Assembly (NCBI GenBank): GCA_963789815.1 | Contig: CAWBMG010000009.1 | Span: 137,103-201,102, forward strand | Direction of reading: 5' to 3' | Source of the DNA: an uncultured Acidobacteriota bacterium | GTDB lineage: Bacteria > Acidobacteriota > Vicinamibacteria > Vicinamibacterales > UBA2999 | Length of the DNA: 64,000 nt | Shown: in pieces, positions 9,254 through 27,925 of the stretch | How positions within the stretch are numbered: position 1 is the stretch's first letter | How the letters are laid out: every line of letters begins with the position of its first letter | The notes under the pieces: model-generated | Database searches by the model: none | The model's input: only the letters and a program-made list of their open reading frames with translations | What the model was told of the DNA's origin: nothing | Translations under genes and position numbers: made by a program

Positions 9254-10292
9254 TTACCGAGCACCTTGCCACTGGATCTTATCCGTCATCCCGTCTTCCC
9301 AGCTGCTCCAACCCGACACCATGCCATAGGGCGCACGCTCGAGAATGGCCTCGACCTGCCGAATCAGGCCCTTTTCGATGCGAAACAGCTCTGCGATGTG
9401 CCACGTCCACGGGACGGTCGGGCCGGCCGTCACTGTTCGGCCGTTCGGGGTTTGGAAGGTTCGCGAAGCGCCTGCGTCGTGGTCAAAGAAGACGAAAGCC
9501 AAAGCGAGGCCGCGTTCCTCGTCGACGACGACGTATCGCCGATCGCGAATGCGGCTGACGAAGTGCAGCAGGCCGGATTCAAACTGCTCGCGGCAGCTCC
9601 ACATCGCGGAATAGTTGGTCGCCGTGCTCGGATCCGGCCGCGTCGGCGGCGTCCCGGCTCGCGCACCTCTCCCGCCGGTAGGATTGTTGGTCGTCAGATT
9701 GCCGTTCTCGATGCGATTGCAGTCGGGCGCGAACGGATACTGGCCCTTACCGTCGTTGAGTTGCATGCCGGAAAAGTACATGTTCGCGACTCGGACCAGA
9801 TCCGCTCGAGACATGCGCTCGGCTGGCGGAATGATTTGCGAGAACAACGCGTTGGGTTGTCCGAGCGCCTCGAAGCCCTTAGCCCCTTGCTCGCTGCGCC
9901 CGACGAGCGTCTCAATCTCGCTGATTCGGCGGTTCTCGACTTTGAGCCGAACCGCAATGATCATCGGCGTGCCGGCCTCACGCATCGTGGCAAACGTGAC
10001 CACCTGCGCCGCCCCGGTGTCGGCGGCGTGGAAGTGTGTACGTGCCTCGCCCTGAAACCGAGTTCCAGAAGCCGTCGCCAAGGCGGAGACGCTGACCGTT
10101 CTCCGTGTACTTGACGTTGACGGTCACCGGGACCTTCTTGGAATCTTTGGCGACCAGCGCGTCGAGGTACTGCTCGGCGACACCGATTAAGCATTCGCGA
10201 TCGCATAGTCCCGTTTCGGGCGTGCCCTGTGCGGTAGCGACTCCACCGAGACATAGCCAGGCCCCAACGGCGATAACCAACTGAGTATTCAT
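9254..10292 (-). pseudogene. secreted hypothetical protein (possible tandem NTF2/SnoaL-like fold), frameshifted
   Basis: The N-part lies in ORF 9978..10415, with the real start at ATG 10290-10292 (MNTQLVIAVGAWLCLGGVATAQG). The C-part is ORF 9254..10081. The frames switch at GDGFWNS|FQGEARTHF, one extra base at the CC at 10058-10059. Confidence 0.6.
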
Positions 10293-10302
10293 GATCGGTC
10301 CT

Positions 10303-11639
10303 TCACAACGCCCAATTTTCCCAACTCCAAACTGCCGACTGCCTACTACCATCGAAATTCTTCCTGAGCCCCTGCCAGTGCATGTAGTAGTCGCGCTCGA
10401 GCAGGTCTGTTTCAAGGGCGAACCTGGTCGGCCTGATCGGAAGCTGGGTTTCGAAGAGAAACACCATGGTGTCGTCGAGGTACTGCGGTTTCAGCTGGGC
10501 GTTTCGACCCCGCTCATAGCCTCCGCATCCGGCCCATGACCTGACATGCAGTTGTGCAGGCTCGCGCTTCCGGGGCCAAAACCGTCCGACTTGCCGATGT
10601 ACTGCCCAGAGATCAATCCCAAGAACTCGCTGGCGACGTTTCGATGAAACGGAGGTGGGCGAAACGTGTGCTCAGCGACGGTCCAGCGAGGTGGAAAGCA
10701 GCCGAGCTCCATGTTCGACGTTCCCGGCACGCCTGTCGGCGAGGCCAGCACGCAGTAGATTGATGGATCCGGGTGATCAAACGTCACGGTGTTGATGCAC
10801 TGGAACCGATAGAGGTCGTATTTGAACGGCACGTAGTTGCCGCGCCAGGCAACGATGTCGAGCGGGGAGTGATCGATCACGGCCTCCCACAACCCACCGC
10901 CATACTTGGCGACCACACGGAAATCGCCCTCGCGATCTTCGTACGCCGCGACCGGTGCGAGAAAGTCGCGCGCGTTGGCAAGACCAAACGTCCCAATTGG
11001 TCCGAGATCGGGAAGTCGAAGATTCTGTCCGTAGTTCTCGCAGATGTATCCGCGCGCCGAACCGTCAGGAAGCTCGACACGGAACTTGATCCCTCGTGGG
11101 ATGAGGCAGACCTCGCCCGGCTTCACGTCAAGCACACCGAGCTCGGAATGGATGCCAAGCGCGCCGACCTGCGGAACGATCAGCAGCTCGCCATCCGCGT
11201 CGTAGAAAAACCGATCGCGCATCGAGGTGTTCGCCGCATACACGTGGATGGCCGCGCCCGTCTGGCCGGCAGGGTCACCGTTGCCCCCGAGCGTGACTAT
11301 GCCATTCACGAAGTCGGTCGGGTCAGACGGAATCGGCATCGGCCTCCAGCGCAGCTGGTTCGGCGTTGGGGGCACTTCGTTGAACGGACCGCTTCGAATC
11401 AGTCGGCTGCCGATCGACGCGAACGGCTTGTGCATTGCGGACGGTCGGATGCGATAGGTCCATGTAGACCGGCTCACACCGCGCGGCGCCGTGAAGGCCG
11501 TCCCGTTCAGTTCCTCGATGTACAACCCGAACGGCGGCTTCTGTGGCGTGTTCTGATCACGGGGCAATGCGCCGGCGAGCGCTTCGGACGCGAACTCGTT
11601 GCCAAAGCCAGACTGATAAGAACGCTGGGTTGGGGACAT
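10303..11639 (-). pseudogene. hmgA: homogentisate 1,2-dioxygenase, frameshifted near the 3' end (pseudogene or assembly indel)
   Basis: The N-terminus [46 protein letters not shown] is classic HGD. ORF 10491..11639 stops after GHGPDAEA. A second frame continues [55 protein letters not shown] to the stop at 10303-10305. One base is missing near 10518-10520. Confidence 0.85.
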
Positions 11640-11689
11640 GGCCGAAGTAGGCTATCGCCCGCAACACGTGGCGTCAAATTCGCGAGAAC

Positions 11690-11867
11690 GAAGGGAGCGG
11701 AGGGGGCGGAGGAAACGGAGGGAACGGAGACGACGGAGGAAACGGGATCACACGGAGCAACGGAGGAACGGAGATAAACGGAGAATCTTTACCTCCGTGT
11801 CTCCGTTCCTCCGTGTGATCCCGTTTCCTCCGTGTGATCCCGTTTCCTCCGTCCCCTCCGTTCCCTC
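11690..11867. repeat. long imperfect palindrome built from CGGAGG/CCTCCG units, with 21-bp direct repeat
   Basis: The left arm is GGAGGAAACGGAGGGAACGGAGACGACGGAGGAAACGGGATCACACGGAG... The loop is near 11787-11790. The right arm carries two copies of CTCCGTGTGATCCCGTTTCCT (about 11808-11849). It fills the gap between the cotH-like stop and the hmgA start. Confidence 0.8.
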
Positions 11868-11874
11868 TCGACGG

Positions 11875-13332
11875 TCAGCGCGCGCCCTGCAGCAGGTACG
11901 CGCGACGCCGATCGACGAAGCTCTTCAAGCTCTCCGGTCCGCTGGCGACGCCAGACTGGAACGCTTCGAAGCTGTAGATCTTTCGCGTGTCGATCTTCAT
12001 GTCTTCTGCGATAAGCGCCTGGTACTGCCGGACGAGTGGCTCGAGCGTTTTCCAATCCAGCCACTTCTCGGCGATGTCCCGAACGTACCCGAGGTACCGC
12101 GTGCGAAGTGCGGGCACTGCCAGGAGCTTTGAGCGCAGTGGCTTCGTCGGATCGTTCACCGCAACGAGCGGGTCGAGGTTCACGCCGCCCCCTCCAAAAC
12201 CGAAACCGGTCTCTTCCGACAGCCCCTCGTTGACGTCGTGGGGAATGACGTGGAAACGGCCCTGGGGGTCCTCGTAGATGTTGTAATCGCTGGCTCGCGT
12301 CCAGTAGCCATCGCTGTTGACGAGGGCGACCTCCAAGGCCAGGAACTTGAGCGTTCCGTCGATGTCGAGCAGCGGCGACAGCGCTGCTTCGAGCTTCTCG
12401 GCCGGCGTTTCGTTGAGCACGCGGAACATCCGGATGAGGTCGCCCCAGGCCTTCGGGTCGTCCTTGGTATGGATTTCGTACAACCGTCGGTACGAAGCGA
12501 GGTTTTCTCCGAGGTACTCCATACCGCCTTGCCCTCTCGGGCTGCCGGGCACCTTCCACCGGGGGCCTTTTGAGGAGGAAAACCATTCGCGCGTGAAATC
12601 GGAATTGAACTGCTGGGCGTTTATGTAGACACCCCAGCTCTCGTCGTTGACGACGACGCGCGCGTAGTTGGTCTTGGGCATTGGCACGTAGTGCCGGGCG
12701 ATCTCGGAGTAGATCAGCGTCCGGACGAGTGTCGGATCGCCGTTGCCGTTCAGCAGATTCAGGGTGCGATACCCCCTGAGGCGCTGCGCATCGTGAACGA
12801 AGTCGAACGAGAGATTGAGTGACTTCTTCGCGCCCTCGGCCACCATCCTGTAGGAGGACATGCCACGGAAGTGCACGCCGACCTCGCGATAAGTTTGCCC
12901 GTCAACCGTTGCGGTTGCCGGAACCTCCACATCCGTGTTGTAGAAGGCGGCGAGCTCGTCCTCCCAGTCGCTGCTGTCAAAGCGGAGGAAGATCGTGCGG
13001 AGCGTGCCGGCGTCGTAGAGCGGTGTAGTAAACGACTTGACCTGGGCCGGGGACAACTTCCGGCCCTCCGATGCAGGTGCGGCTCCACGGCCGCCAAAGC
13101 CTCCGAACCGCCGTCGTCCGAATCCTCGGCCGCCCGTCGAGCTCGTCAACCATTCACGAGCCAGTTTCCGTTCGGCGGCGTCGAGCCGCCCATCGGCGTC
13201 CTTGTCAAACTGCTTGACTACTTGTTGCTCGGCTGAGCCGAACCCGAAGAAACCCTGCGCCCCCGCTGGGTACTGCGCGGAAGCCAACACCGCCAATATG
13301 CTTGCGAGCCTCCAAGCGGTCCCCTTGGTCAT
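11875..13332 (-). CDS. secreted CotH-family atypical kinase
   Basis: Signal peptide MTKGTAWRLASILAVLASA. EF-hand-like loop DKDADGRLDAAE. CotH core motifs: LNLSFDF, YRTLNLLNGNGDPTLVR, YSEIARHYVP, ESWGVYINAQQFN, HVIPHDVNE. Confidence 0.85.
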   Translation of the reverse strand: MTKGTAWRLASILAVLASAQYPAGAQGFFGFGSAEQQVVKQFDKDADGRLDAAERKLAREWLTSSTGGRGFGRRRFGGFGGRGAAPASEGRKLSPAQVKSFTTPLYDAGTLRTIFLRFDSSDWEDELAAFYNTDVEVPATATVDGQTYREVGVHFRGMSSYRMVAEGAKKSLNLSFDFVHDAQRLRGYRTLNLLNGNGDPTLVRTLIYSEIARHYVPMPKTNYARVVVNDESWGVYINAQQFNSDFTREWFSSSKGPRWKVPGSPRGQGGMEYLGENLASYRRLYEIHTKDDPKAWGDLIRMFRVLNETPAEKLEAALSPLLDIDGTLKFLALEVALVNSDGYWTRASDYNIYEDPQGRFHVIPHDVNEGLSEETGFGFGGGGVNLDPLVAVNDPTKPLRSKLLAVPALRTRYLGYVRDIAEKWLDWKTLEPLVRQYQALIAEDMKIDTRKIYSFEAFQSGVASGPESLKSFVDRRRAYLLQGAR

Positions 13333-13343
13333 TCGAGCGCCCT

Positions 13344-15077
13344 CTATCGTTGTGCCTTCAACAGGAAGGCTCGCCGGCGGTCCACAAAACTCTTCACGCT
13401 CTCTTCGTTGCCACTCACGCCGGCCTGAAACTCTTCGAAGGTGTAGAGCTTGCGGGTATCAGCCTTGACGTGTTCCGCGATGAGGGAATGATACTGCCGG
13501 ACGAGCGGTTCGAGCGTACGCCAGTCGAGCCACTGCTGGGCGATCTCGCGCACGTAGCCGAGGTATCGCGTGCGCAGCGCCGGCACTGCGAGCAGTTTCG
13601 ATCGCAGTGGCTTGCTCGCATCGTCGAGTCCAACGAGGGGGTCCAGATCCACCCCGGCCTGCCCGAACATGGGCGGAAATTGGAAGCCGGGGGGAAGCCC
13701 GGCGGCGGTCCTCCGCCGGGAAATCCTGGCGGCCCGCCGGCGCGCGGGAACCCGGGAGGGGGCTGGAAGCCCGGCGGCGGAAATCCTGGAGGGGGTCCGC
13801 CCCGTCCACGTCCTGGCCCACCACCCTCATCGGCGAGAGCTTCGTTCACGTCGTGAGGAATGAGGTGAAAGCGTCCCTTCTCGTCTTGATAGATGCTGTA
13901 GTCGCTCGCGCGCACCCAGTAACCGTCACTGTTGACCAACGCCACTTCCAGCGCCAGAAACTTCAGAGTCCCATCGACGTCCAGCATCGGGGCAAGCGCA
14001 GCTTCGAGCTTGTCCGGGGGCGTCTCGTTGAGGACCCGAAACATTCGAATGAGATCTCGTCCACGACTTCTCGTCGTCTCGCGTCCTGATCTCGTAGATG
14101 CTCTTGTACGGGGCGGCGTTTTCGCCCAGGTACGCCATGCCGCCCTGCCCAAAGGGGCTGCCTGGGACCCTCCATCGGGCTCCGCGTCGTGTGGAGAACC
14201 AGTCGTTCACGAAATCGGCATTGAACTGTTGCGCGTTCACATAGACGCCCCAGTTCTCGCCGTTGATAACCGCGCGAAGGTAGTTCATCTTTGGGGTCGG
14301 TACGTAATGCCGAGCGATTTCCGAGTACAAGAGACCGCGAACCAACGTCGGGTCGCCGTTCCCATTGAGAAGGTTGAGCGTCCGATATCCCAACAGACGC
14401 TGATCGTCGTTGACGAAGTCGAATGCGAGGTTCAGCGATCGCTTGGAGCCCTCCGAAGCAAACATGAAGGAGGACATGCCGCGAAAGTGAACGCCGACGT
14501 CTGGGTACGTCTTGCCATCGACGGTGACAATGGCCGGGACATCGACATCGGTGTTGTAGAAATCGGCAAGTTCCTTCTCCCAGTCGGGGCTCTCGAACTG
14601 CATGAACAAGGTTCGAAGCGTGCCTGTGTCGTAGAGCGACTCAGTTCCGTACGAGCGCACGTCTGCGGGCGAAAGCCGCCGGCCCGTGGACGAGGGCGCG
14701 AAACCGCGACCACCGAGCAACGCTGCCATCCCTCCGGGCGGAGGAGGCCCGAATCGTCCCAGTAGGCCCGCGAGACCCGCTGGGGGTTGGCTCGCCAACC
14801 ACTCCCGCGCGGCCTTGCGCTCGGCGCCATCGAGCCGGCGATCGCCGGTCTTGTCGAACTGGCGAACGAGCGGCCGTTCCTGAAGCATGGCCGCAAAATC
14901 TGGCGGGAATCCGCCGGGCGGTCCGGGAGATCCGGCCGGGCGTTGGGCAGCTGGTGAGTACTGAAAGACGACGAGCCCAAGAATCCCGGCCATGGCACAC
15001 GTCAGAGGCCAACCCGTGCGCGGCGCGTGGTTGGCGCCGCCGGTTTGCGCTTCACTTGATGCAACGTGTTCGGTCAT
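13344..15077 (-). pseudogene. CotH-family atypical kinase paralog with Pro/Gly-rich insertion, two frame disruptions
   Basis: Three ORF pieces (13926..15077, 13415..14152, 13344..13670) align colinearly with the neighbouring CotH. The first shift is at W|DLIRMFRVL (about 14056-14059). The second is inside a G6 run (13689-13694), within the GGPPPGFPPPGFQPPPGF region. Confidence 0.8.
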
Positions 15078-15769
15078 CGCTCGTTCCTTTGCTGCTCTTC
15101 GGAACCACTTCGCTGCAACGTGACGCCTTGAACACCCTCAAGCCGATTCAAGGCCGTCACGAGCTCATGAGCCGACTCTTCTCTGCGCAACGCTGTCTGG
15201 TACAACACCTCGGTCGCGATTCCCTGGCGTGCGGTAGAGATCGTCACGAGACGCCGCGCTCCAAGGTACGTGTCAAGTGTCGGTCCAAGCAACGCGTTCA
15301 CATCGTGTCCGATGCCGACGCGCACCTGAAGCGTGAAGGGAAACTGTGCCCCTTCCTCTTCCTGTGGAATCGACTGCTTCCTCATCGCGAATGCCGCGAT
15401 AGCGACGATCACGATCCCGGAGAGCGCCACCCACACGTTGCTGGCGCCGACGGCCATTCCAACCGCGACGGCAAAAATCACGTATGCCGTGTCCTGAGTG
15501 TCACGAACCACGGTGCGAAAACGGACGATGGACAGCGCGCCGACCAGGCTGAACGCGCGAGCAACGTTGTCGCCAATGACCTGAGTCACCATCGCGATCA
15601 AAACCGACAGCAGCACCAGCGTTGTCGTAAATGATGACGGCGGTTCACGCCGTGAGCGACGATAGATGAAGGCAACCACTGCCCCCAGCACGAGCGCCGA
15701 AAAGAGTCGCAGCAACACCTCGAACATCGAGGTGGGATGTCCTTCGAACGGCCGCAGGAAATCAGGCAT
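15074..15769 (-). CDS. DUF4956 membrane protein
   Basis: Multi-TM N-part with ARAFSLVGALSIVRFRTVVRDTQDTAYVIFAVAVGMAVG, plus a soluble C-terminal domain of about 100 aa. It overlaps the VTC gene stop (8 nt) and the CotH start (ATGA). Confidence 0.8.
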   Translation of the reverse strand: MPDFLRPFEGHPTSMFEVLLRLFSALVLGAVVAFIYRRSRREPPSSFTTTLVLLSVLIAMVTQVIGDNVARAFSLVGALSIVRFRTVVRDTQDTAYVIFAVAVGMAVGASNVWVALSGIVIVAIAAFAMRKQSIPQEEEGAQFPFTLQVRVGIGHDVNALLGPTLDTYLGARRLVTISTARQGIATEVLYQTALRREESAHELVTALNRLEGVQGVTLQRSGSEEQQRNER

Positions 15770-16511
15770 GGACGTCGCTGCCAGTCGCGGCCGACGACTC
15801 GTCGACGGCGCGCACGTGCCCGAGCGCCGTCATCCCGAACCGATATTTCGATGCGGTCTGGGGAGCGAGTTTGAACTCCTCAATAAGACGCTTGAAGACT
15901 GCCGGCAAATACCCGCGGAACTTCATTTCCAGGATCAGTTGCCCGTCGAGGATCGCGGTGCCAGCGTCTCCGTTGAAGTGCGCCTCCTCTATGGGTGCGA
16001 CGCTCACTGAGTCGTCCAGGGTGAGTCGGGCGGATGCGCCATTCACCAGCGTTCCGCGCGCCATGCGGTGATAGGAGAGCTGGCAGGCCGGACCGAGGCC
16101 CCGAGCCAATAGGCGCCGGTGAAACCAGTGGCCTGGCCAGTCACCATCAGGCTCGGGTTGCTTCAGGTTCACCAGAACGTCGAGGGGCGTCTTGGTTCGT
16201 CGCTTGACCACGATGCCGGGTTTCCTCAACTTACGTTCAAGGAATACGAAGTCGCTGTCGGTATAGCGGCGAATGCGGTACTTTGCCCTGCCAAACGAGC
16301 CTCGCCGGTGGAAGACATCGAAATCCGCCGTGTCAAAGTAGAGACTCGCGGTCCGGTACTCATCACCATGGGGCCCAGTGCCGTAGGGGTCGGCCTGGAG
16401 GTGGGTGCGAGCCCACTCGCGAACGCGCTCACCAAGGTCAGGGTCCACCACGAACTTGATCTCCGAAGCGAATGCGCGCGCCTCTCTGCTATCGACCATG
16501 TTGTTAGACAA
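15762..16511 (-). CDS. VTC-domain (triphosphate-tunnel, polyphosphate-polymerase-like) protein
   Basis: SEIKFVV (the ExK of the CYTH/TTM tunnel), ASLYFDTADFDVFHRR, KYRIRRY and VFLERKLRKPG match the bacterial 'polyphosphate polymerase domain-containing protein' family as I recall it. Confidence 0.75.
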   Translation of the reverse strand: MSNNMVDSREARAFASEIKFVVDPDLGERVREWARTHLQADPYGTGPHGDEYRTASLYFDTADFDVFHRRGSFGRAKYRIRRYTDSDFVFLERKLRKPGIVVKRRTKTPLDVLVNLKQPEPDGDWPGHWFHRRLLARGLGPACQLSYHRMARGTLVNGASARLTLDDSVSVAPIEEAHFNGDAGTAILDGQLILEMKFRGYLPAVFKRLIEEFKLAPQTASKYRFGMTALGHVRAVDESSAATGSDVHA

Positions 16512-16627
16512 TACGCCAAACGTTACACGGCGGACACACGGGTGTTACCTTGACTGCGCAAAAATCGGAGTTTTTACGAATTCTTTACCTTTTCGGGCGG
16601 GGTGAGGCTGCGGCGAGTGGGGCGTAG

Positions 16628-16654
16628 GGCGGGTCCTGCTTTTTTGGACCCGCC
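16628..16654 (-). terminator. GC-rich hairpin downstream of the CMD-family gene
   Basis: GGCGGGTCC-TGCTTTTTT-GGACCCGCC is a perfect 9-bp stem, 4 nt after the stop at 16658. There is no U-tail on the minus strand, so terminator function is inferred only. Confidence 0.4.
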
Positions 16655-16657
16655 AAG

Positions 16658-17203
16658 TCACAAGGGAATCAGGGCAGGCATCGCTCCCTGGGGTAACGGT
16701 GTGCGTGCGACATTCATCAGCATCGCGAGCGTCGTGTAGTAGCCCACCGCCCCCACCAGATCGACCACGCCCTGCTCACCGAATGCCGCGACTGCGCGCG
16801 CGTACGTGATGTCGCTGACGGCTTTGTCGCGCTGCAGCTCGACGAAGAAGTCGTAGATGAGGGCTTCGTGGGGCGCCATCCCATCGGGTTGCTCGCCGAG
16901 TGCGATCGCGTCGATGATCGCCGGGCTGAGACCCGCATCGAGCGCGATAGGCGCGTGAACGAACCATTCATACTGCTGCGTCCACGCTCTGGCGGTAAGC
17001 AGGATGACCATCTCACGCAGCCGCGGCTCGAGCGAGTGATCGAACCGCAGATACTCCCCCAGCCGCTGAAGACGACGACTGAACTCGGGGCTGCGAAGCG
17101 CGGGAACAAACGGGCCTCCCAATTCGCCCCGCCGGCCCGAGACGATCTCCTGAGCCGCTAGCCTTTGGGCCGCTGTCATCTTGTCCGTCGCAATCGGCGG
17201 CAT
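16658..17203 (-). CDS. carboxymuconolactone decarboxylase (AhpD-like) family protein
   Basis: The pattern MPPIATDKMTAAQRLAAQEIVSGRRGELGGPFVPALRSPEF is typical of the CMD family. The start is moved to ATG 17201-17203 because the ORF-track N-terminus (MWELGL) is a translated GGGAGTTGGGA repeat. Confidence 0.75.
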   Translation of the reverse strand: MPPIATDKMTAAQRLAAQEIVSGRRGELGGPFVPALRSPEFSRRLQRLGEYLRFDHSLEPRLREMVILLTARAWTQQYEWFVHAPIALDAGLSPAIIDAIALGEQPDGMAPHEALIYDFFVELQRDKAVSDITYARAVAAFGEQGVVDLVGAVGYYTTLAMLMNVARTPLPQGAMPALIPL

Positions 17204-17266
17204 TCTATCTTTGGTGAACTCAGTCAATCCCAACTCCCACACAACCCAGCCACCCAGCTACCTAGC

Positions 17267-18169
17267 CTACCTAGCCCCGACAATCCTATCGAGCAACGTA
17301 CGCCGCGTGGTCTCGAGCGTGAACGCCAAAGACTCGCGAGGGATGCTCGTGACGAACGGCCCGACTATCCAGCCGAGACCGAAGGGAATTCCACGCGTCA
17401 GCGAGATCGACTCGCACTCGATGTACACGCCGCCGTCTCGCTCGAGAAATCTCCAATACGTATTGAGACGCCACAAGTATCCGCCGCCACTCCCGACGGG
17501 CTCTTCGTGCTCACCGGGCTCGTCCGGATTGATAACTTCGGCAATGCGGGTGCTGGAGATGCGACTACGAGCTCGCCCGTCGCTCTCTCGCGTGAACCGC
17601 GCGTCGTGCTCGGTGTTCATCACGACCGTGATGACCTTCTTCATGGTGAAGCGAAGGAAGACCTGGAACTCATCTCCATCCCGTTTCAGGATACGAGAAC
17701 GGGCGACTGCCGGAGCATAGATGCTGGCGTGGCGGTCGTAGTCCTGCAGGAGCGACACAGCCCCGTTCACGGACCCACCAAGCACGAAGACCGTGCCGAC
17801 CCAGTGGTGAATCAAGCCGTCCGGTACATCAACCTCTCGCCCGCCTTCGCGTACCCTGAGCCGCTCAATGACGAGCGTCCCTCGCCTGACCTCCGCGAGC
17901 TTTGACTCGCGCTGCGAGACCGGTAATGAATCAAGCCAGAGAAAACCGCCAGCCTCCATTCGCGGCTCGGCCAATGAGACGTAGCGCTGGAAGGCTGCGA
18001 CGGTTGAGGGGAGGAGGTCGGCCCCATCCGACTGCGATGGTACTAAGGTGAGAGCTATCGCAAATCCCAAACAGGTCTTAGCAATCGTACACACGTCTCT
18101 AGGTCTCCACGTCTCAATGTGCAAAAGCCTTGAGAACGGGCTCGCGGAATGTTCAGCCGAACCGGACAT
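17267..18169 (-). CDS. hypothetical protein (possible START/SRPBCC-like lipid-binding fold)
   Basis: 300-aa ORF with coding-like composition and an N-terminal hydrophobic segment (CLGFAIALTLV). I recognise no family motif with certainty. Confidence 0.55.
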   Translation of the reverse strand: MSGSAEHSASPFSRLLHIETWRPRDVCTIAKTCLGFAIALTLVPSQSDGADLLPSTVAAFQRYVSLAEPRMEAGGFLWLDSLPVSQRESKLAEVRRGTLVIERLRVREGGREVDVPDGLIHHWVGTVFVLGGSVNGAVSLLQDYDRHASIYAPAVARSRILKRDGDEFQVFLRFTMKKVITVVMNTEHDARFTRESDGRARSRISSTRIAEVINPDEPGEHEEPVGSGGGYLWRLNTYWRFLERDGGVYIECESISLTRGIPFGLGWIVGPFVTSIPRESLAFTLETTRRTLLDRIVGAR

Positions 18170-18330
18170 TGGTCATTTGCCGGAACAGCCAGGCCGAGAT
18201 CCATGGTTTTATTTCAGACGGTACTGGCACTGGTCCTCTAATTCGCGCAAGATATGGAAAGTTCGTCGCTTGACGCTAATTACCTCCAAGAGAATCCCAC
18301 GACGCCCTCCAGCCGAGAAGCTCATCCATC

Positions 18331-19446
18331 ATGTCTGACATCGAACAACGTAGCGAAAATCTTCGTCAAGGCGCCGAAGGGCTGCCGGTTCCCATCCGCG
18401 AAGGGCTTCCACCGACGTTTCGTATGCGTGCGGATTCTCATTACGTCGAAGAGCTCGAGTCGACGCCTCTTAACTCAGCTGTCAAGCTCGTGGATGCCCG
18501 ATCCATCGAGGTTCGTGGAGACGAACCGCACCCGGCTGTGGACTTCGTCGAGTCGATCAAGCAGCACGGGGTCCTCCAGCCTCTCCTGGTCCAAACGCGT
18601 GGCGGCCGCTATCGACTGATCGCGGGACGCAAGCGACTAGCCGCGGCCATTGCCGCTGGACTTCGCGAAGTCCCCTGTCTGGTTCAGCGGGTGGACGAGG
18701 ACCAGGCGATCGCGCTGGCAGAGGCGACAAACCTGCCGTCAGTCAGCGCATCGGGTGTCGTTGGAACCGCGATCTCGTTGAGCGCCGTTCCCGCTACCGT
18801 GGATGCCGCGGCCGAAGCGCTCGCACAGTCCCTGTCGGCACTCGCGTCGTCTGCAAACTTGCTTTCGGGAGGTTCACAACTCACCCAAACCGTAGCCGCA
18901 GACCTGGTTAGGGCAGAAGCGGCACGCGCCCTCCAGCTGCTCCTCGCGGGCCGTGTTCTGCGCGGAGATGTAGCCATTGCCAGGACTCGAGTGCCCGTGA
19001 AGGTCATCGTTGACCGCGCGATGCAGATCACAGCCGCCGAACGCCATCTTCGAGGCGCTGACGTGCGCCTCAATGTGGAAGGAACACGGGACGCGATGGT
19101 GCGCGGTGACGAAGAGCTGCTCTCCGGCGCTGTTGCTGGTCTGATGATGACAACCGTGGTCCTCGTCGGCGACCTTCGAGGTCCAGTCGTGCTCACGACC
19201 TCGGCTCGTCCTGACGGTCGAATCGCAATGACGGTTTCTCAGGAATCGCTCACCGTGCCGGAGTCGTGGATTGCCGCGACGTTCGACACCCCTTGGCCGA
19301 TCGCTACCGCGACCTCGAGCGGCTTGCTGCTGATGCAGGCGGCTCGGCGAATCGCGGAGGCTCACGGCGGAGACGCGATCGCGACATCGACGGAGAGCGG
19401 CATCAGCTTCTCCATCGTGCTTCCGGTCGCACTTCGCGAAATGTAG
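18331..19446 (+). CDS. ParB/Srx N-terminal domain fused to a degenerate histidine-kinase-like (DHp+HATPase) module
   Basis: ParB-N box: HGVLQPLLVQTRGGRYRLIAGRKRLAAAIAAGLREVPCLV. The C-half has a HATPase_c-like layout (VRGDEELLSGAVAGLMMTTVV...SSGLLLMQAARRIAEAHGGDAIATSTESGISFSIVLP). It lacks the H-box His, the N-box Asn and the DxGxG box. Confidence 0.7.
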   Translation: MSDIEQRSENLRQGAEGLPVPIREGLPPTFRMRADSHYVEELESTPLNSAVKLVDARSIEVRGDEPHPAVDFVESIKQHGVLQPLLVQTRGGRYRLIAGRKRLAAAIAAGLREVPCLVQRVDEDQAIALAEATNLPSVSASGVVGTAISLSAVPATVDAAAEALAQSLSALASSANLLSGGSQLTQTVAADLVRAEAARALQLLLAGRVLRGDVAIARTRVPVKVIVDRAMQITAAERHLRGADVRLNVEGTRDAMVRGDEELLSGAVAGLMMTTVVLVGDLRGPVVLTTSARPDGRIAMTVSQESLTVPESWIAATFDTPWPIATATSSGLLLMQAARRIAEAHGGDAIATSTESGISFSIVLPVALREM

Positions 19447-19655
19447 GAACCGCTCGACGAAAAAAATATCGCTCGACATCAAAAACACTCTTGCGTCTCG
19501 AGCACTAACGGCTTATCTTGTGGTGTGACCGTCGCATGACGCTACTTGTTGGCGTTTTGCTCCCCCCTGCTATAGCGGTCGCGATGTGGTTTCACGACGA
19601 AAAAATCGGTTGACTCGTACACCTCTGACTCCCATGAGGGTGCGATCGGCCCTAA

Positions 19656-20354
19656 GTGGCTTCGAGCCCGTACCAGGGAGGGCTTTTGGTCGGCCAGCAT
19701 AATTTCGGATCCCGACTGAGGGCTCAGCGTGAACGTCACGGTGTCACGCTGGCATCAATTGCCGACTCGACAAAGATCAAACGCTCGCTACTCGAGGGGC
19801 TCGAAAGTGGCGACGTCTCGCAATGGCCGCGTGGCCTCTTCCGGCGTGCTTACATCCGCGACTATGCCTGTGCGATAGGCCTGCCTCCTGAACCGCTCGT
19901 GTTGGAGTTCGGGCAGATCTTCCCGGAAGACGGTGGTGAAGTTCGTGCCGGACTCGAGGCTGCCGAGCCCTTGCGATTGACACTTGCCGGCGACCCCGAC
20001 ACTGGTATGCGTCTGGTGGCCAGGCGCGCGCTCTGCGCAGCTCTCGAGATGAGTGTAGTCGTCGCGTTCAGCGGCGTCGTCGCCGTTGCATCCGGTGCCC
20101 CGTTCTGGAATGTGTGCGCCGTCGCTGCGCTGGTGTACTACGCTGTCGCCGCTGCCGTAACCGGCCGCAGCTTGGACGTGCGACAACTGCAGGCCTTGAT
20201 TCCTCACGGAGCGACAATCGGCACGTTACCGACCGAGACGCGAGAGGAGCCCGTTCGGCTCTATACGGTGGCCGAGCCACGCGGGCCACGAGTTCCATTC
20301 GTCCACGTCGTCGGCGGCGAGGACTTTCCTCAGCACCACACCGCGTCGCACTAG
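19656..20354 (+). CDS. RodZ-like XRE-type HTH membrane protein
   Basis: GTG start. The HTH is FGSRLRAQRERHGVTLASIADSTKIKRSLLEGLESGD, followed by two hydrophobic helices (VVVAFSGVVAVASG, VCAVAALVYYAVAAAV). Confidence 0.7.
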   Translation: MASSPYQGGLLVGQHNFGSRLRAQRERHGVTLASIADSTKIKRSLLEGLESGDVSQWPRGLFRRAYIRDYACAIGLPPEPLVLEFGQIFPEDGGEVRAGLEAAEPLRLTLAGDPDTGMRLVARRALCAALEMSVVVAFSGVVAVASGAPFWNVCAVAALVYYAVAAAVTGRSLDVRQLQALIPHGATIGTLPTETREEPVRLYTVAEPRGPRVPFVHVVGGEDFPQHHTASH

Positions 20355-20399
20355 CGTAGCGGCCACGGCCGCGCTCGTGCCTTTCACGTTCTTGCGCCG

Positions 20400-21311
20400 A
20401 TGCAGAATCCGGATGCCGCAGAGTTGCGGCGGCTCACAAGCGAACTGGAGAACTTTCGCGACATCGCGAAGTACCTTCTGCCACAACCCGGAGAGATACC
20501 GAAGCTCTCGGGAATCGACGTGTTCGGCGGCACGCTCGCGCTGAGCGGATCGGCGGGTGGCGACCACATCATCTACATCGATTTCAAGCAGCGATTCGAC
20601 CTGCAAGCGCGGATGACGCGAGCGCGTGAGGAAGGCAGGTCGGAGGTGCTCGCGAACCTCGAACGCTGCCAGCGGATGGCCGGGATCGCCGTGATCGACG
20701 TGGCGGGACATCGCATGACGGATGCCCTGCTCGCGGCCATGCTCCACCAGGCCTTTCTGCTCGGCGCGATCTACGAGTTGGATCGATTCGGCCAGATCAC
20801 GAAGCGATTGTTCGAGAATCTGAACACGCGCTTCTACCAGTCGTCGGGTGCGCACAAGTTCATTTCATTGGTCTACGGTGAGATTTCCGAGGATGCTCGC
20901 TTCAGGTTTCTCTCGGCGGGGATGCCGTTCCCGGCCGTGTTTTCGAAGCAAAACGATCGGTTCATGGAGGTGGGCGCACACCTCTCGGTGTCGTTTCCCC
21001 CGGTTGGCATGATGCCGTCGTGGAACGTGATCGACCGCAAGACGACGACGAGCATCTTGGGCTTCAAAGAACACTACGAAATGAACGAATGGCGGTTGAT
21101 GGGCGCGGGCGATATCCTTCTGCTGCACACCGACGGTCTTGTCGATCACAGAAAGCAAGACGACGCCTACTTCCCTGACCAGCTCGAACAGAAGCTGCGG
21201 GAAGTGAAGCACCTGGGGGCGCGCGAGATATTCGAGGCCATCAAAGCCGACCTGCTGGCGTTCACGGCGCCAAGCGACGACATCAGCATGGTCGTCATCA
21301 AGCTGGCCTGA
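20400..21311 (+). CDS. PP2C/SpoIIE-family protein phosphatase
   Basis: GGDHIIYIDF, AVIDVAGHRMTDA and ILLLHTDGLVDH are metal-binding Asp motifs of RsbU/SpoIIE-type phosphatases. Confidence 0.8.
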   Translation: MQNPDAAELRRLTSELENFRDIAKYLLPQPGEIPKLSGIDVFGGTLALSGSAGGDHIIYIDFKQRFDLQARMTRAREEGRSEVLANLERCQRMAGIAVIDVAGHRMTDALLAAMLHQAFLLGAIYELDRFGQITKRLFENLNTRFYQSSGAHKFISLVYGEISEDARFRFLSAGMPFPAVFSKQNDRFMEVGAHLSVSFPPVGMMPSWNVIDRKTTTSILGFKEHYEMNEWRLMGAGDILLLHTDGLVDHRKQDDAYFPDQLEQKLREVKHLGAREIFEAIKADLLAFTAPSDDISMVVIKLA

Positions 21312-21321
21312 TTACGTTGCG

Positions 21322-22482
21322 TCAGACTTCCTCGTTGAGCACCCGCACTTGCGCCTCGCCCTGGCGTAGCATCCGGATGAACGCGGTCACGAGATCGGGA
21401 TCGAACTCCGTGCCAGAGCGCTCTTCGAGGTAGCTCGTGACCTTTTCCGAAGCCCACGCATCGCGGTACGGACGTTTGGTCCGAAGCGCATCGAAGACGT
21501 CGCACACGTGAACGAGTCGGCTGGCCAGCGCGCAGGCGCGGCCGTAGTGCATCGCCGGATAGCCTCCGCCATCAAGCATGATGTGGTGCTCATATGCCAC
21601 AACGGCCGCGAGGTCTAATTCCTCGTCGCTCGTCATGATGATCCGCGCGCCATCAATGGGATGTTGATTCATGACGCGCCGCTCCTCGTCGCTCAGCTTC
21701 CCTGGCTTGGTGAGGACCTCCAAGGGGATCCGGATCTTGCCGATGTCGTGAAGCAGCCCGGCCACGCCGAAGGCACGAACCTCGCGTGGACCGCACCCAA
21801 GATGCTCGGCCAGGCCCATCGCAAGCACTGCAACGTTCAGCGAGTGCGTGGTCGTGTATTGATCGAATTCCTTCAACTGCAGCAACGGCAGCACCATTCG
21901 TCGATCGCTATGCATGGCCACCGACAATGAACGGACGACGGCCTCGGCCTCGGTAAGCGGTACCGCGCCATGCGATCGGACCTCCTGCTGCACCCATCGC
22001 AGCGTCTCTGCTTCTTCGCCGAGCGTGAGATTCAGGGTCGCGAGGGCAGGGGCACCGGCAGCCGCTTCGGCCTCAGCCTGACCCTGCAACCCGACGGCGC
22101 CGAAGCGAATGCCGAGGGGTGCCATTTGTCGGTTCTCGCTTGTGGTAATCGCCGACAGAGTGAGGCGCGCCAGTATCTCCTGTAGGAAGCTCTCGAACTC
22201 ATCCCGGCTGACCTGGCGCTCAAACTCGAGTCGTTGGACACCGGCGGCCATCAGCCGGCGACCCCAGTCCCATTCCTTCAACTCGCGCAACCGATCGCGG
22301 CCGAAGACGACTTCGTCTTCGAGGAACGTAAAGGATGGATGCGCGCCTCCGACCCACAGGCCGTCGAGCGTTTCATGCGCTACGTCGATCGCGCGTTCCC
22401 GGGAGGGATGCCCCTCTGGGTAGAGGGTCATCACGGCAAGCGCGTGCGCGAAGGCATTGAGAAAGCCGGCAGGATCGCTCAT
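21322..22482 (-). CDS. HD-GYP domain phosphodiesterase
   Basis: HSLNVAVLAMGLA, LLHDIGKIRIP, KPGKLSDEE, HPIDGARI, AYEHHIMLDGGGYP. The start overlaps the upstream stop (ATGA at 22479-22482). Confidence 0.9.
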   Translation of the reverse strand: MSDPAGFLNAFAHALAVMTLYPEGHPSRERAIDVAHETLDGLWVGGAHPSFTFLEDEVVFGRDRLRELKEWDWGRRLMAAGVQRLEFERQVSRDEFESFLQEILARLTLSAITTSENRQMAPLGIRFGAVGLQGQAEAEAAAGAPALATLNLTLGEEAETLRWVQQEVRSHGAVPLTEAEAVVRSLSVAMHSDRRMVLPLLQLKEFDQYTTTHSLNVAVLAMGLAEHLGCGPREVRAFGVAGLLHDIGKIRIPLEVLTKPGKLSDEERRVMNQHPIDGARIIMTSDEELDLAAVVAYEHHIMLDGGGYPAMHYGRACALASRLVHVCDVFDALRTKRPYRDAWASEKVTSYLEERSGTEFDPDLVTAFIRMLRQGEAQVRVLNEEV

Positions 22483-25277: not shown

Positions 25278-26216
25278 GTGCTCGACATACGTGCGACCCG
25301 TCACGAGTTTCCAGGAAGGCTCATCGTCGCGATGGGGGTTCTCGCTGTCGTGCTGCTTTCACGAGCACCATCGGCGGCCGAGCTCGCGGAACTGTGGATC
25401 GAGCCTGAACCAGGTCGCGACCTGTTCTACGGCGTCGGAGGGCCGCAGCTCGCGCCGAAGCCATTGTTGACATACACAGTCATTGAGGCAAAGAAGCGTG
25501 GATTCAGCAGCGGCTACACCGTGAAGGACCCGGAAGGGAAAGAGTGGAGCGCGAAGCTCTATCCGGAGGCCAGAACGGAAGTCGTTGCCTCACGCATTCT
25601 CTGGGCGGTCGGCTATCACCAGCCGCCAGCCTACGTGCTGGAGCAGTGGTCGGCGGCTGGTGCCCGAGGTCCCAATCCGCAGCCCGTCGCCCGCTTTCGC
25701 GAACGGCAGCCAGAGTTTCACGGCTTGACGGAGTCAGGCCCGTGGGCATTCTCAGACAACCCCTTCGTCGGCACGAAGCCCCTCGCCGGACTTCTGGTGC
25801 TACAGGTGATGCTGGGTAACTCGGACCTCAAAGCTGCCAACAACATGCTCTACACACTCGCCCGGCCGGTCGAAGGAGCGCGACGCTGGTACGTGGTACG
25901 CGATCTCGGCCACACGTTCGGTCGAACGGGCGTCACCGATGCGCCCCGCGACGACATCGAGGTATTCGATGAGACGCCGTTCGTCAAAGCTGTGGACCAC
26001 GGTATCGTCAAGTTCGAATACCGCGGGTTGCATGGGCCCCTGTTCGAAGACATTACCGTGGCAGACCTTCGCTGGATTTGCGGCCGTCTGTCGAAGCTGA
26101 CGAATAGGCAGTGGGTCGACGCCTTCCGCGCAGGCGGGTATGCCGAGGCTACCAGCCAAAGGTATATCCGCCGGCTGAAGCAGAAGATCGCCGAGGGACT
26201 GGCGGTCGAGGGTTAG
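25278..26216 (+). CDS. secreted/membrane-anchored atypical kinase-fold protein (PI3/4-kinase- or HipA-like catalytic loop)
   Basis: GTG start with GAGGAG upstream. N-terminal hydrophobic anchor LIVAMGVLAVVLL. LGNSDLKAANNML resembles a kinase catalytic loop (GDxHxxN / HRDLKxxN). VVRDLGHTFG resembles a DFG-like metal loop. Confidence 0.55.
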   Translation: MLDIRATRHEFPGRLIVAMGVLAVVLLSRAPSAAELAELWIEPEPGRDLFYGVGGPQLAPKPLLTYTVIEAKKRGFSSGYTVKDPEGKEWSAKLYPEARTEVVASRILWAVGYHQPPAYVLEQWSAAGARGPNPQPVARFRERQPEFHGLTESGPWAFSDNPFVGTKPLAGLLVLQVMLGNSDLKAANNMLYTLARPVEGARRWYVVRDLGHTFGRTGVTDAPRDDIEVFDETPFVKAVDHGIVKFEYRGLHGPLFEDITVADLRWICGRLSKLTNRQWVDAFRAGGYAEATSQRYIRRLKQKIAEGLAVEG

Positions 26217-26233
26217 GCGTGCTTCGAACACCT

Positions 26234-27013
26234 ATGCTGACCAAGCGAGCTCTGACCGTTGCCCTCGGGTTGTCGATGGGCTTGTTGCTCGCGGGCGCGG
26301 CGCCCGCGCGATTGGCTGCTGCGCAGCAGGCCGAGGCGCAGCGGTCTCCGCTCGAACAGTCCCAGTCCATGCCCCCGGGCGACTGGAAGGAGATGATCTC
26401 CGAGGGAATTGTCCGCCTTCCGCTCGCCGGTGCTCTGGGAGCCTTGCTGGCTTTTCGATTGAAACGGCGAGGCACGCCAACTCGAACGCCTGCCGTGGTG
26501 CAGACGCAGATCATCCTGACGGTGGTCGGCGCCCTGATCATGCTAGTGGTCGGCGCCAGCCTCGCCCGCGCCTTTGGTATCGTCGGCGCGGCGAGCCTCA
26601 TTCGGTACCGCTCGAAGATCGACGACCCTAAAGATGCTGGTGTGATGCTGTGCGGCTTGTCTGTGGGACTCGCGACTGGCGTCGGTCTCTATGGCCTGGC
26701 CGTTTTCGCGACGGTGTTCCTACTGGCGGCACTGGCCCTTATCGAATCTTTCGAGCCGAGAAACTTCCACCACTTCGCGCTGCAGGCTACGGGCATACAA
26801 GACGTCGCGGAGCTTCGGCCGCGCTTCGAACAGGTGCTGAAACGGTTCAATGCAGAGTGGTCTCTTCGCACCCAGTCGAAAGAGGAACTCTCCTACGACG
26901 TGAAGGTGCCCTTTGAAGTGGAAACCGACCGCGTCACCAATGCGATCCTGAAACTCGAACCAGCAGGCAAGATCGCCGTCGAGTGGGAAGAAAAGAAAGA
27001 TAAGAAATCATGA
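26234..27013 (+). CDS. DUF4956 membrane protein (paralog of 15074..15769)
   Basis: ARAFGIVGAASLIRYRSKIDDPKDAGVMLCGLSVGLATG aligns with the DUF4956 signature of the first copy. It also shares the soluble C-terminal domain. The start is taken at ATG 26234 (MLTKRALTVALGL). Confidence 0.75.
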   Translation: MLTKRALTVALGLSMGLLLAGAAPARLAAAQQAEAQRSPLEQSQSMPPGDWKEMISEGIVRLPLAGALGALLAFRLKRRGTPTRTPAVVQTQIILTVVGALIMLVVGASLARAFGIVGAASLIRYRSKIDDPKDAGVMLCGLSVGLATGVGLYGLAVFATVFLLAALALIESFEPRNFHHFALQATGIQDVAELRPRFEQVLKRFNAEWSLRTQSKEELSYDVKVPFEVETDRVTNAILKLEPAGKIAVEWEEKKDKKS

Positions 27014-27031
27014 CCGAGTTCAGGAGGCCCT

Positions 27032-27925
27032 GTGAAGCTCATCGTTCAACCAGACGACGGCGTGATGCCGATCATGAAGGCCGTACGACGCGCGAAGAAA
27101 TCCATCGATCTCGTCATTTTTCGATTCGATCGTGTAGAGCTTGAAAAGGCACTCGCGGCGGCAGTCGCGCGGGGTGTCGTGGTTCGCGTGCTCATCGCAC
27201 ACACCAATGGGGGAGGCGAGAAGCTCCTTCGGAAGCTCGAGCCGCGCCTGCTCGAGGCTGGCGTAACGGTGACACGGACCGCAGACGACCTGCCACGCTA
27301 TCACGGCAAAATGACGCTGATTGACGACGCGCTATACGTGCTCGGGTTCAACTACACCCGACAGGACATCGAGCGCAGCCGAAGTTTCGGACTGATCACC
27401 CACGACAAGAAATTGTTTCAAGAGGCAGCCTCGCTCTTTGAGGCCGACTCGACTCGACAACCCTATAAACCGAGCCACGACCGGTTCGTGGTCAGCCCCG
27501 AGACTTCCCGCGAACGTCTGTCAGCGTTCATCGGCAAGGCCCGGAAGCAATTGCTGATCTACGACGAGCGCATTACCGACAAGCTGATCCTTCGCCTGAT
27601 TCGCGAACGCGTGGACGCCGGCGTCGAGATCCGTATCATCGGGAAAATCGAGAAGAACATACCGGGTGTGGCGACGCGTAAGCTGTCTGACATGCGGCTG
27701 CATGTGCGAGCAGTCATTTGCGACGGCGCCAGAGCCTTTGTCGGCAGTCAGAGCCTCAGGAAACCCGAACTCGATGAGCGCCGGGAAATCGGCGTCATCG
27801 TCAACGATTCGCGGGTCGCGCGAAAGATGCATGCTGTGTTCGAGGCCGACTGGGCTCTGGCCAAAGGGTCCAAAAATGATGCGGAGGACGAAAAGGCCTT
27901 TACTGCGGAGGCTGCCGCCGTTTGA
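27032..27925 (+). CDS. phospholipase-D-like two-HKD-domain protein
   Basis: GTG start after CAGGAGG. The first motif, YHGKMTLID, is HxK(x)4D. The second, LHVRAVICDG...GSQSL, is HxR(x)4D, i.e. K to R. Confidence 0.8.
   Translation: MKLIVQPDDGVMPIMKAVRRAKKSIDLVIFRFDRVELEKALAAAVARGVVVRVLIAHTNGGGEKLLRKLEPRLLEAGVTVTRTADDLPRYHGKMTLIDDALYVLGFNYTRQDIERSRSFGLITHDKKLFQEAASLFEADSTRQPYKPSHDRFVVSPETSRERLSAFIGKARKQLLIYDERITDKLILRLIRERVDAGVEIRIIGKIEKNIPGVATRKLSDMRLHVRAVICDGARAFVGSQSLRKPELDERREIGVIVNDSRVARKMHAVFEADWALAKGSKNDAEDEKAFTAEAAAV

Follow-up and report, generated by a model that had tools for sequence, protein, structure and literature searches.

What could a putative polyphosphate polymerase at the inner face of the membrane have to do with protein kinases that look secreted, that their genes should be kept side by side? 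The question is raised by four genes on the minus strand (open reading frame [ORF] listing, positions 11875-16511) of a 64,000-nucleotide stretch of contig CAWBMG010000009.1 (assembly GCA_963789815.1) from an uncultured Acidobacteriota bacterium, referred to here as the window. The genes code for a VTC-domain protein, a DUF4956 membrane protein and two CotH-type kinases, named CotH-up and CotH-down after their order in the direction of transcription. We find that VTC, DUF4956 and one or two apparently secreted CotH-type kinases make up a conserved, co-transcribed module, and there is good support for regarding the three families as one functional, regulated module. The answer to the question itself is more tentative. 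The plausible reading that we prefer, at a probability of about 35%, is that polyphosphate (polyP) is made by the VTC protein and exported to feed CotH kinases in the periplasm.

Gene order and conservation of the VTC-DUF4956-CotH operon

The four genes are packed as a previous sequence-only reading of this DNA had described them, and all its junction coordinates were borne out. The VTC gene (15762-16499, 245 aa) and the DUF4956 gene (15074-15769, 231 aa) share an 8-nt overlap of stop and start, ATGCCTGA, at 15762-15769; the DUF4956 stop and the CotH-up start (13344-15077) lie in a common ATGA at 15074-15077; and an 11-nt spacer (13333-13343) separates the CotH-up TAG at 13344-13346 from the ATG at 13332 with which CotH-down (11875-13332, 485 aa) begins. 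What that reading had observed stands as regards genes, junctions, motifs and domains, but not as regards the intactness of its third gene, which is taken up below, or the beginning of the first. The longest VTC ORF starts with a TTG at 16511, public gene calls place the start of a 245-aa protein at the ATG at 16499, and we consider the latter more likely. The assignments to VTC, DUF4956 and CotH all score above their Pfam thresholds, while NCBIfam holds no model for any of the four operon proteins. The flanks are unrelated to the operon, with a CMD-family gene upstream and a homogentisate dioxygenase gene downstream.

Related loci were collected by scanning one genome per species, which yielded 80 loci labelled as Acidobacteriota (53), Verrucomicrobiota (17), Proteobacteria (5), Haliangiales (1), Bifidobacteriaceae (2) or unclassified (2); 72 of them contain enough downstream sequence to be informative. 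VTC, DUF4956 and CotH are adjacent on the same strand in 53 of the 72, and the synteny that the interpretation of the operon presupposed is conserved. Two further loci carry VTC-DUF4956 with CotH elsewhere in the locus, four carry VTC-DUF4956 only, and CotH is found somewhere in the fetched locus in 62/72.

The two loci labelled uncultured Bifidobacteriaceae (L023 and L029) have the VTC-DUF4956-CotH operon with a VTC protein 54-56% identical to that of the window, and L029 has an outer-membrane phosphate porin as well. These bins are probably mislabelled or contaminated.

The VTC-domain protein is a candidate Vtc4-type polymerase

The first protein of the operon matches PF09359 with 98.7 bits (cut-off 23; E=5e-28) over profile positions 3-234 of 235, and the EIKF, YFDT and KYRIRRY motifs pointed out earlier are present. 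VTC is the single domain that the Pfam scan gives for its 245 residues, with neither SPX nor DUF202. A single-sequence search of the PDB returned one spurious match only, and a profile was required: built from 38 VTC homologues, it found the Vtc4 catalytic domain as best match (E=1.4e-6), while a sub-profile of the C-terminus gave chance matches only. The AlphaFold2 model (predicted local distance difference test, pLDDT, 88.9) is a closed beta-barrel tunnel whose fold is nearest to that of Vtc4. In Foldseek its best matches are the Vtc4 structures 3g3r/3g3q (E=4e-13, TM score 0.66), and the top 12 PDB matches are all VTC subunit chains, 9 of Vtc4 and 3 of Vtc3 (cryo-electron microscopy complexes). 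YgiF, CYTH cyclases and thiamine triphosphatases rank behind them.

The residues required in Vtc4 are K200, R264, R266, K281, Y359, R361, E426, S457 and K458, of which K458 is the sole one altered in the inactive Vtc2/3 (bioRxiv 10.1101/2023.01.27.525886). According to the hidden Markov model (HMM) alignment, R75, R77, K90, Y143 and R145 of the window protein correspond to R264, R266, K281, Y359 and R361. The C-terminal part was aligned with hhalign to part of a yeast-like Vtc4 taken from a public contig, reached via a short exon fragment in a Vtc4-seeded protein search. This alignment is weak (E=0.21) but in register, with LILEMKF opposite AVLEVKL and ASKYRFG opposite FSKFIHG, so that E191, S217 and K218 would be the counterparts of E426, S457 and K458. 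For K15, in EIKF, the pairing with K200 is positional only. All these catalytic counterparts, K15 and K218 included, are invariant in the 38 homologues. Because the fold is nearest to Vtc4 and the catalytic counterparts do not vary, the enzyme looks like an active Vtc4-type polymerase, and its description as a candidate Vtc4-type polyP polymerase is reasonably supported by sequence and model.

The DUF4956 protein resembles MgtC

The second protein belongs to DUF4956 (PF16316, 52.1 bits, cut-off 30.6, E=8.5e-14). It also aligns with positions 1-117 of the 121 of the MgtC profile PF02308, with 24.9 bits and therefore below the cut-off of 31.4, and many of its homologues in JGI are labelled as YhiD/MgtC-type. 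The multi-pass architecture with a soluble tail proposed previously is reproduced by the AlphaFold2 model, which shows five transmembrane helices (15-39, 46-65, 67-86, 91-108 and 112-130) with moderate confidence and a C-terminal domain (145-220) of beta-alpha-beta-beta-alpha-beta topology, ACT-like, with a pLDDT of about 93. The Foldseek matches of this domain are weak and comprise ACT domains and ribosomal protein S6. The segment of highest conservation, SLVGALSIVRFRTVVRDTQDT, is invariant, and an R83/R85/R89 ring is conserved too. Judged by eye with the positive-inside rule, the loops RRSRRE and RFRTVVRD and the C-terminal domain would be cytoplasmic, on the same side as the VTC protein. 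As predicted, DUF4956 is thus an MgtC-like protein with five transmembrane helices and a cytoplasmic ACT-like domain.

A second MgtC-family membrane protein is encoded at 26111-27013, with 33 bits, above the MgtC cut-off, and a weak match to DUF4956. Its gene adjoins one for a PLD-like enzyme (27032-27925), followed by a convergent metallophosphoesterase gene (27900-28823, minus strand). In this segment too (26111-28823), a phosphoryl-transfer enzyme is encoded next to an MgtC-like protein.

The CotH-type kinases

CotH-down matches PF08757 in full length (135.7 bits, E=3.4e-39, profile positions 1-322). For comparison of both copies we used a public contig of 10.6 kb (L001; NCBI GCA_025450795.1), which is 99.0% identical to positions 11631-22294 of the window and carries an intact CotH-up of 577 aa. 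In CotH-down and in CotH-up of L001, NSDG and PHDVNE align to NFDG and PWDYD of the Bacillus cereus protein (5jd9), and the catalytic and metal-binding Asp residues (D228 and D251 of B. subtilis) are conserved in both. CotH-up and CotH-down are 70% identical; in the pairwise comparison CotH-up has a PPGF-repeat insert of about 40 residues with no such insert in CotH-down.

Both genes had been read as signal-bearing CotH kinases, which agrees with their CotH domains and secreted look, except that the first of them has no intact ORF in the window. The N-terminus of CotH-down, MTKGTAWRLASILAVLASAQYPAGAQG, is signal-peptide-like by eye, and an uncharged hydrophobic N-terminal stretch is present in 63 of 73 near-full-length related CotH ORFs, signal peptides being judged here by eye and by a crude hydrophobicity rule only. 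On this basis the CotH proteins look secreted. The loops previously called EF-hand-like (DKDADGRLDAAE in CotH-down) form a conserved motif, DxNxDxRLDxxE, in 59/73 of these ORFs, but EF-hand thresholds are not reached: with cut-offs of about 25 bits, the loop of CotH-down obtains 13-14 bits and CotH-up is not matched at all. Since the profile scores are below threshold, EF-hand-like is a fair label that claims no membership of the family.

The break in CotH-up

As written, CotH-up has no intact frame in the window. It consists of three ORF pieces in two frames (13926-15077, 13415-14152 and 13344-13670), matching PF08757 positions 1-103, 134-217 and 239-322, respectively. An in-frame stop at 13926 limits the product to 383 aa and ends it ahead of both catalytic Asp residues, which lie inside the out-of-frame stretch. 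A base-by-base comparison with L001 shows two indels in the window: one G too many at 14058 and one C too few in the C-run at 13688. With both indels undone, a 577-aa ORF results that differs from that of L001 in 2 residues.

This break is probably an assembly error and not a real pseudogene, because the neighbouring homogentisate dioxygenase gene is frameshifted too and because L001, at 99% identity, has an unbroken copy of CotH-up. A true pseudogene, redundant beside the 70%-identical paralogue directly downstream, which is itself intact, is a doubtful though serious alternative. The given sequence does contain two indels and a premature stop, and the insertion at 14058 lies outside any homopolymer. 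Against it, besides the two observations just mentioned, one indel falls in a C-run and the other beside a GATC site, and the codon differences between the repaired frame and L001 are mostly synonymous (7 versus 2 non-synonymous). The length of the source contig, 405 kb, suggests a long-read assembly, which is a guess, and contigs of the 'MFD' series of metagenome-assembled genomes, whose long-read origin is likewise a guess, are found among the relatives with a similarly fragmented CotH. A metagenome scan for either allele at 14058 gave no match.

Programmed frameshifting of CotH-up was considered and rejected: the two shifts go in opposite directions 370 nt apart, a stop lies between them, and a near-identical strain has a plain ORF.

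In the homogentisate 1,2-dioxygenase gene (10306-11639, minus strand) the main ORF covers HgmA_C positions 2-100, and 10306-10671, in another frame, covers positions 98-153; one T is apparently absent near 10525, GCT(T)ATGAG. This frameshift suggests indel errors in the assembly. Two further minus-strand regions contain overlapping ORFs of coding-like composition in different frames: at 9257-10490 an ORF with a signal peptide (9981-10490) is followed by 9257-10123, and at 248-2675 a DUF5916 gene (1032-2675) is followed by 248-1171. These pairs may be further frameshifts; a Pfam scan of 9257-10123, 9981-10490 and 248-1171 gave no match.

Candidate operator and recurrent neighbours

Upstream of the operon, at 16573-16588 on the minus strand and about 75-90 nt from the VTC start, lies a direct repeat, GTAAAGAATTCGTAAA. 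Of 80 upstream regions (those of the window and of 79 related loci), 26 contain the corresponding pattern, [GCT]TAA[ACT]-N5-6-[GCT]TAA[ACT], within 180 nt upstream of VTC, as compared to 0.88 +/- 0.9 in dinucleotide shuffles, and 18 of the 26 carriers are sequences uninspected before the pattern was written. The 64 kb of the window contain it only this once, with both strands counted. Verrucomicrobial loci with a divergent regulator have an operator-like TTAACGnnnGCTTAAT. A spacing of 10-11 nt is typical of sites for the OmpR family. From its sequence, the repeat is a candidate operator, which a response regulator of the OmpR family may bind.

All neighbouring ORFs of the 80 loci were clustered to define recurrent neighbours. 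OmpR-type response regulators and HAMP histidine kinases accompany the operon in about 20 loci, divergent from VTC or after CotH; since NCBIfam gives no equivalog-level identity for these two-component systems, they cannot be called PhoBR. A phosphate-selective porin (Porin_O_P, PF07396) is encoded beside CotH in 11 loci, with porins of two lineages and in two arrangements, and a Metallophos protein is present in 5 of these 11. The first arrangement is VTC-DUF4956-CotH-CotH-porin, optionally with a response regulator and a histidine kinase; the second is Metallophos, Porin_O_P, CotH, a large spermidine-synthase-like membrane protein, VTC and DUF4956. Porins and metallophosphoesterase next to CotH in relatives are new support for a phosphate-linked reading of the module.

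The second arrangement occurs in L045, L052, L057, L079 and L082, and its VTC is a second VTC. L045 and L079 have two VTC paralogues per locus; in L082 a DUF4956 fragment lies at the contig end and a second VTC was undetected there.

Relation to known systems

The sequence-only reading took the gene triad to be experimentally uncharacterised, which is outdated. In C. perfringens NELoc-2, each VTC-domain gene (about 230 aa) precedes one for a cytoplasmic-membrane protein of about 222-226 aa that is annotated "tubulin/FtsZ", with CotH alongside (PMC2879425); that this membrane protein is of the DUF4956 family we infer from its size, position and predicted location. Gram-positive pel operons directly adjoined by genes for DUF4956, CotH and a polyP polymerase were described in a 2019 survey (bioRxiv 10.1101/768473), and a 2025 study made deletion mutants for all three in S. 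intermedius (PMC12345266). In that species, aggregation in sputum medium fell by more than 50% when DUF4956 or CotH was deleted, and Pel levels were changed in these mutants; a connection with phosphate metabolism was proposed by the authors, who reported that they did not find the synteny outside Pel loci (PMC12345266). The triad has therefore been published already, and what is new here is its Pel-independent, diderm-type form.

The S. intermedius locus comprises the same three families contiguously, as SIR_1592 (MgtC transmembrane/ACT), SIR_1593 (polyP-polymerase domain) and SIR_1594 (CotH-FN3). The Gram-positive Pel-locus triad, known also from clostridia and bifidobacteria, resembles that of the window in a CotH that is predicted to be secreted and in a DUF4956 protein with an MgtC-type transmembrane domain and an intracellular ACT domain. 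It differs in that neither the window nor the 80 related Gram-negative-type loci contain a pel locus, that CotH is duplicated in the window and has the EF-hand-like loop where CotH of S. intermedius has FN3, and that the relatives of the window add phosphate porins, a phosphoesterase and two-component systems. NELoc-2, for its part, is a pathogenicity-associated locus of a Gram-positive bacterium.

With the eukaryotic VTC complex the operon shares the PF09359 tunnel fold (profile and fold searches of the PDB both match Vtc4 best), residues corresponding to the triphosphate-binding ones of Vtc4, K458 included, and the genetic tie of a catalytic domain to a membrane protein. However, the operon protein lacks SPX and a fused DUF202 and, though it may function in a similar way, is no member of that complex. 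The eukaryotic partners of Vtc4 are the channel subunits Vtc1 and Vtc2/3, whereas the partner here is MgtC-like with five transmembrane helices and an ACT-like domain; secreted CotH kinases, absent from eukaryotic VTC, are coupled to the pair, and both polymerase and translocation are putative.

CotH of Bacillus (5jd9/5jda) is like the CotH proteins of the window in that the whole profile is matched and both catalytic Asp residues are kept. It acts inside the mother cell, with ATP available, on spore-coat proteins, in contrast to the window proteins with their signal-like N-termini, an extra N-terminal region with the EF-hand-like loop, and no sporulation context. MgtC of Salmonella and Mycobacterium has the same kind of five-helix domain, alignable over nearly the full profile, and a small cytoplasmic ACT-like domain, but DUF4956 stays below the MgtC gathering threshold as a separate family with its own invariant SLVGALSIVRFRTVVRDTQDT, and its gene stands with those for a tunnel enzyme and kinases and not with one for a Mg2+ transporter.

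Proposed polyphosphate supply and its alternatives

In the reading that we prefer, the tunnel enzyme would draw on a nucleoside triphosphate to build polyP at the membrane's inner face, and DUF4956 would be its partner, either passing the chain outward or gating the enzyme. The polyP, or its phosphoryl groups, would then serve the CotH kinases, which lack their own source of ATP in the periplasm. Some relatives also encode an OprO/P-type anion porin and a metallophosphoesterase, by which this phosphate traffic would be extended across the outer membrane, and an OmpR-family response regulator acting on the upstream direct repeat would probably set expression. We arrive at this model because the kinases have no obvious donor outside the cytoplasm and because relatives encode a phosphate porin and a phosphoesterase; export via DUF4956 and use of polyP by CotH are the inferred steps in it. 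The interpretation in the sequence-only reading, a split VTC-like synthase/translocase for secreted kinases, holds up in its domains, the Vtc4-like enzyme, the secreted-looking CotH proteins and the synteny, but the translocase role it proposed for DUF4956 finds no support here: the protein is MgtC-like with an ACT-like domain, and characterised MgtC is a regulator.

Several observations weigh against polyP supply. DUF4956 is unrelated to DUF202, the channel domain of eukaryotic VTC, and groups with MgtC, whose known roles are regulatory: it regulates the F1Fo ATP synthase and PhoR (as cited in PMC12345266). No VTC-DUF4956 fusion is found among the matches listed. VTC stands next to CotH without DUF4956 in 7/72 loci and alone in 6/72, and the window's own operon has neither a porin nor a two-component system beside it. 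On the side of the enzyme, the pairing of K15 with K200 and the C-terminal alignment have a weak or positional basis, and the literature searched contains no biochemical study of a bacterial VTC-domain protein. Finally, the S. intermedius VTC mutant has no clear phenotype (PMC12345266), which argues against a strict supply line from VTC to CotH.

Many of these points agree with the alternative that survives best, by which the product stays cytoplasmic and DUF4956 is an MgtC-like, ligand-sensing regulator, through its ACT-like domain, of phosphate or energy homeostasis or of the CotH pathway; the genes would be linked by shared regulation under phosphate or envelope stress, with no substrate handed over. 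The transmembrane domain that matches the MgtC profile nearly end to end, the ACT-like fold, the targets of MgtC mentioned above, the 7 loci without DUF4956, a VTC mutant whose phenotype differs from those of the DUF4956 and CotH mutants in S. intermedius (PMC12345266), and the two-component systems and operator associated with the operon all speak for it. It would leave the tight and widespread coupling of a cytoplasmic polymerase to secreted kinases unexplained, however, and names no phosphoryl donor for periplasmic kinases, while the phosphate-selective outer-membrane porins by CotH point to anionic phosphate in the envelope. We regard it as possible, yet on the unlikely side.

That the VTC protein is no polymerase and instead a tripolyphosphatase, a polyphosphatase or another tunnel-fold enzyme, like the characterised bacterial members, seems improbable. 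The fold search does return YgiF, CYTH and triphosphatase structures as well, with E-values down to 6e-10, the common tunnel residues serve hydrolysis in those enzymes (PMC4641920), and no bacterial VTC-type enzyme is known to have been assayed; but Pfam gives VTC and not CYTH, the best matches by sequence and structure are all Vtc4, and the Lys by which active Vtc4 differs from inactive Vtc2/3 does not vary. The least probable alternative, an accessory for modifying an exopolysaccharide or matrix in which CotH phosphorylates matrix or surface and polyP is a polyanionic matrix partner, draws on the contiguity of the triad with pelDEADAFG in streptococci, clostridia and bifidobacteria (bioRxiv 10.1101/768473) and on the loss of Pel-dependent aggregation upon deletion of DUF4956 or CotH (PMC12345266), but the surroundings of the operon in the window are free of pel and glycosyltransferase genes, and such families are absent from the recurrent neighbours of the 80 loci, which are porins, a phosphoesterase and two-component systems.

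The supply of exported polyP to CotH kinases could be extended to a complete third, Vtc4-like bacterial polyP route, in which tunnel enzyme and DUF4956 form a synthase/translocase delivering to the periplasm, calcium-dependent CotH kinases use polyP and not ATP, OprO/P-type porins take part, and a dedicated OmpR-type two-component system is in control. As a whole we hold this extended form to be rather unlikely. Bacterial polyP synthesis is known from PPK1 and PPK2, and a working Vtc4-type polymerase, if true, would be a route separate from both. If its synthesis were coupled to export, this would bear on how kinases outside the cytoplasm are energised and on how polyP reaches the envelope or matrix. 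As the module is abundant in Acidobacteriota and Verrucomicrobiota, major soil phyla, it could bear on soil phosphorus cycling. The related loci show that the triad exists independently of Pel loci and is common outside them. Catalytic residues, the candidate operator, and the porin and phosphoesterase partners are experimental handles gained; the module is a good target for experiments, and the copy in the window is an unexceptional example whose break is probably an artefact.

Flanking elements

Scans of the window against Rfam gave no match, and those for sigma-70 promoters and terminators no matches above chance. Immediately 3' of the stop of the upstream CMD gene, at 16628-16654 on the minus strand, there is a GC-rich hairpin, GGCGGGTCC...GGACCCGCC, which suggests that VTC and the genes after it are transcribed as a unit of their own, from their own promoter region. 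Further upstream, the 3' end of an unannotated gene of 300 aa and the sequence just past it (17207-17303) hold most of the indels and many substitutions relative to L001; this may be a locally hypervariable or misassembled patch.

At the other end, between the operon and the next gene, a long imperfect hairpin of about 200 nt, still near-perfect in its pairing, occupies 11680-11880 on the minus strand (RNA fold -139.6 kcal/mol, z=-12.3 versus shuffles). It is built of short CGGAGGAA-type units, and its internal 19-nt and 27-nt units are present in other copy numbers than in L001. The hairpin is likely a transcript end or a repeat element.

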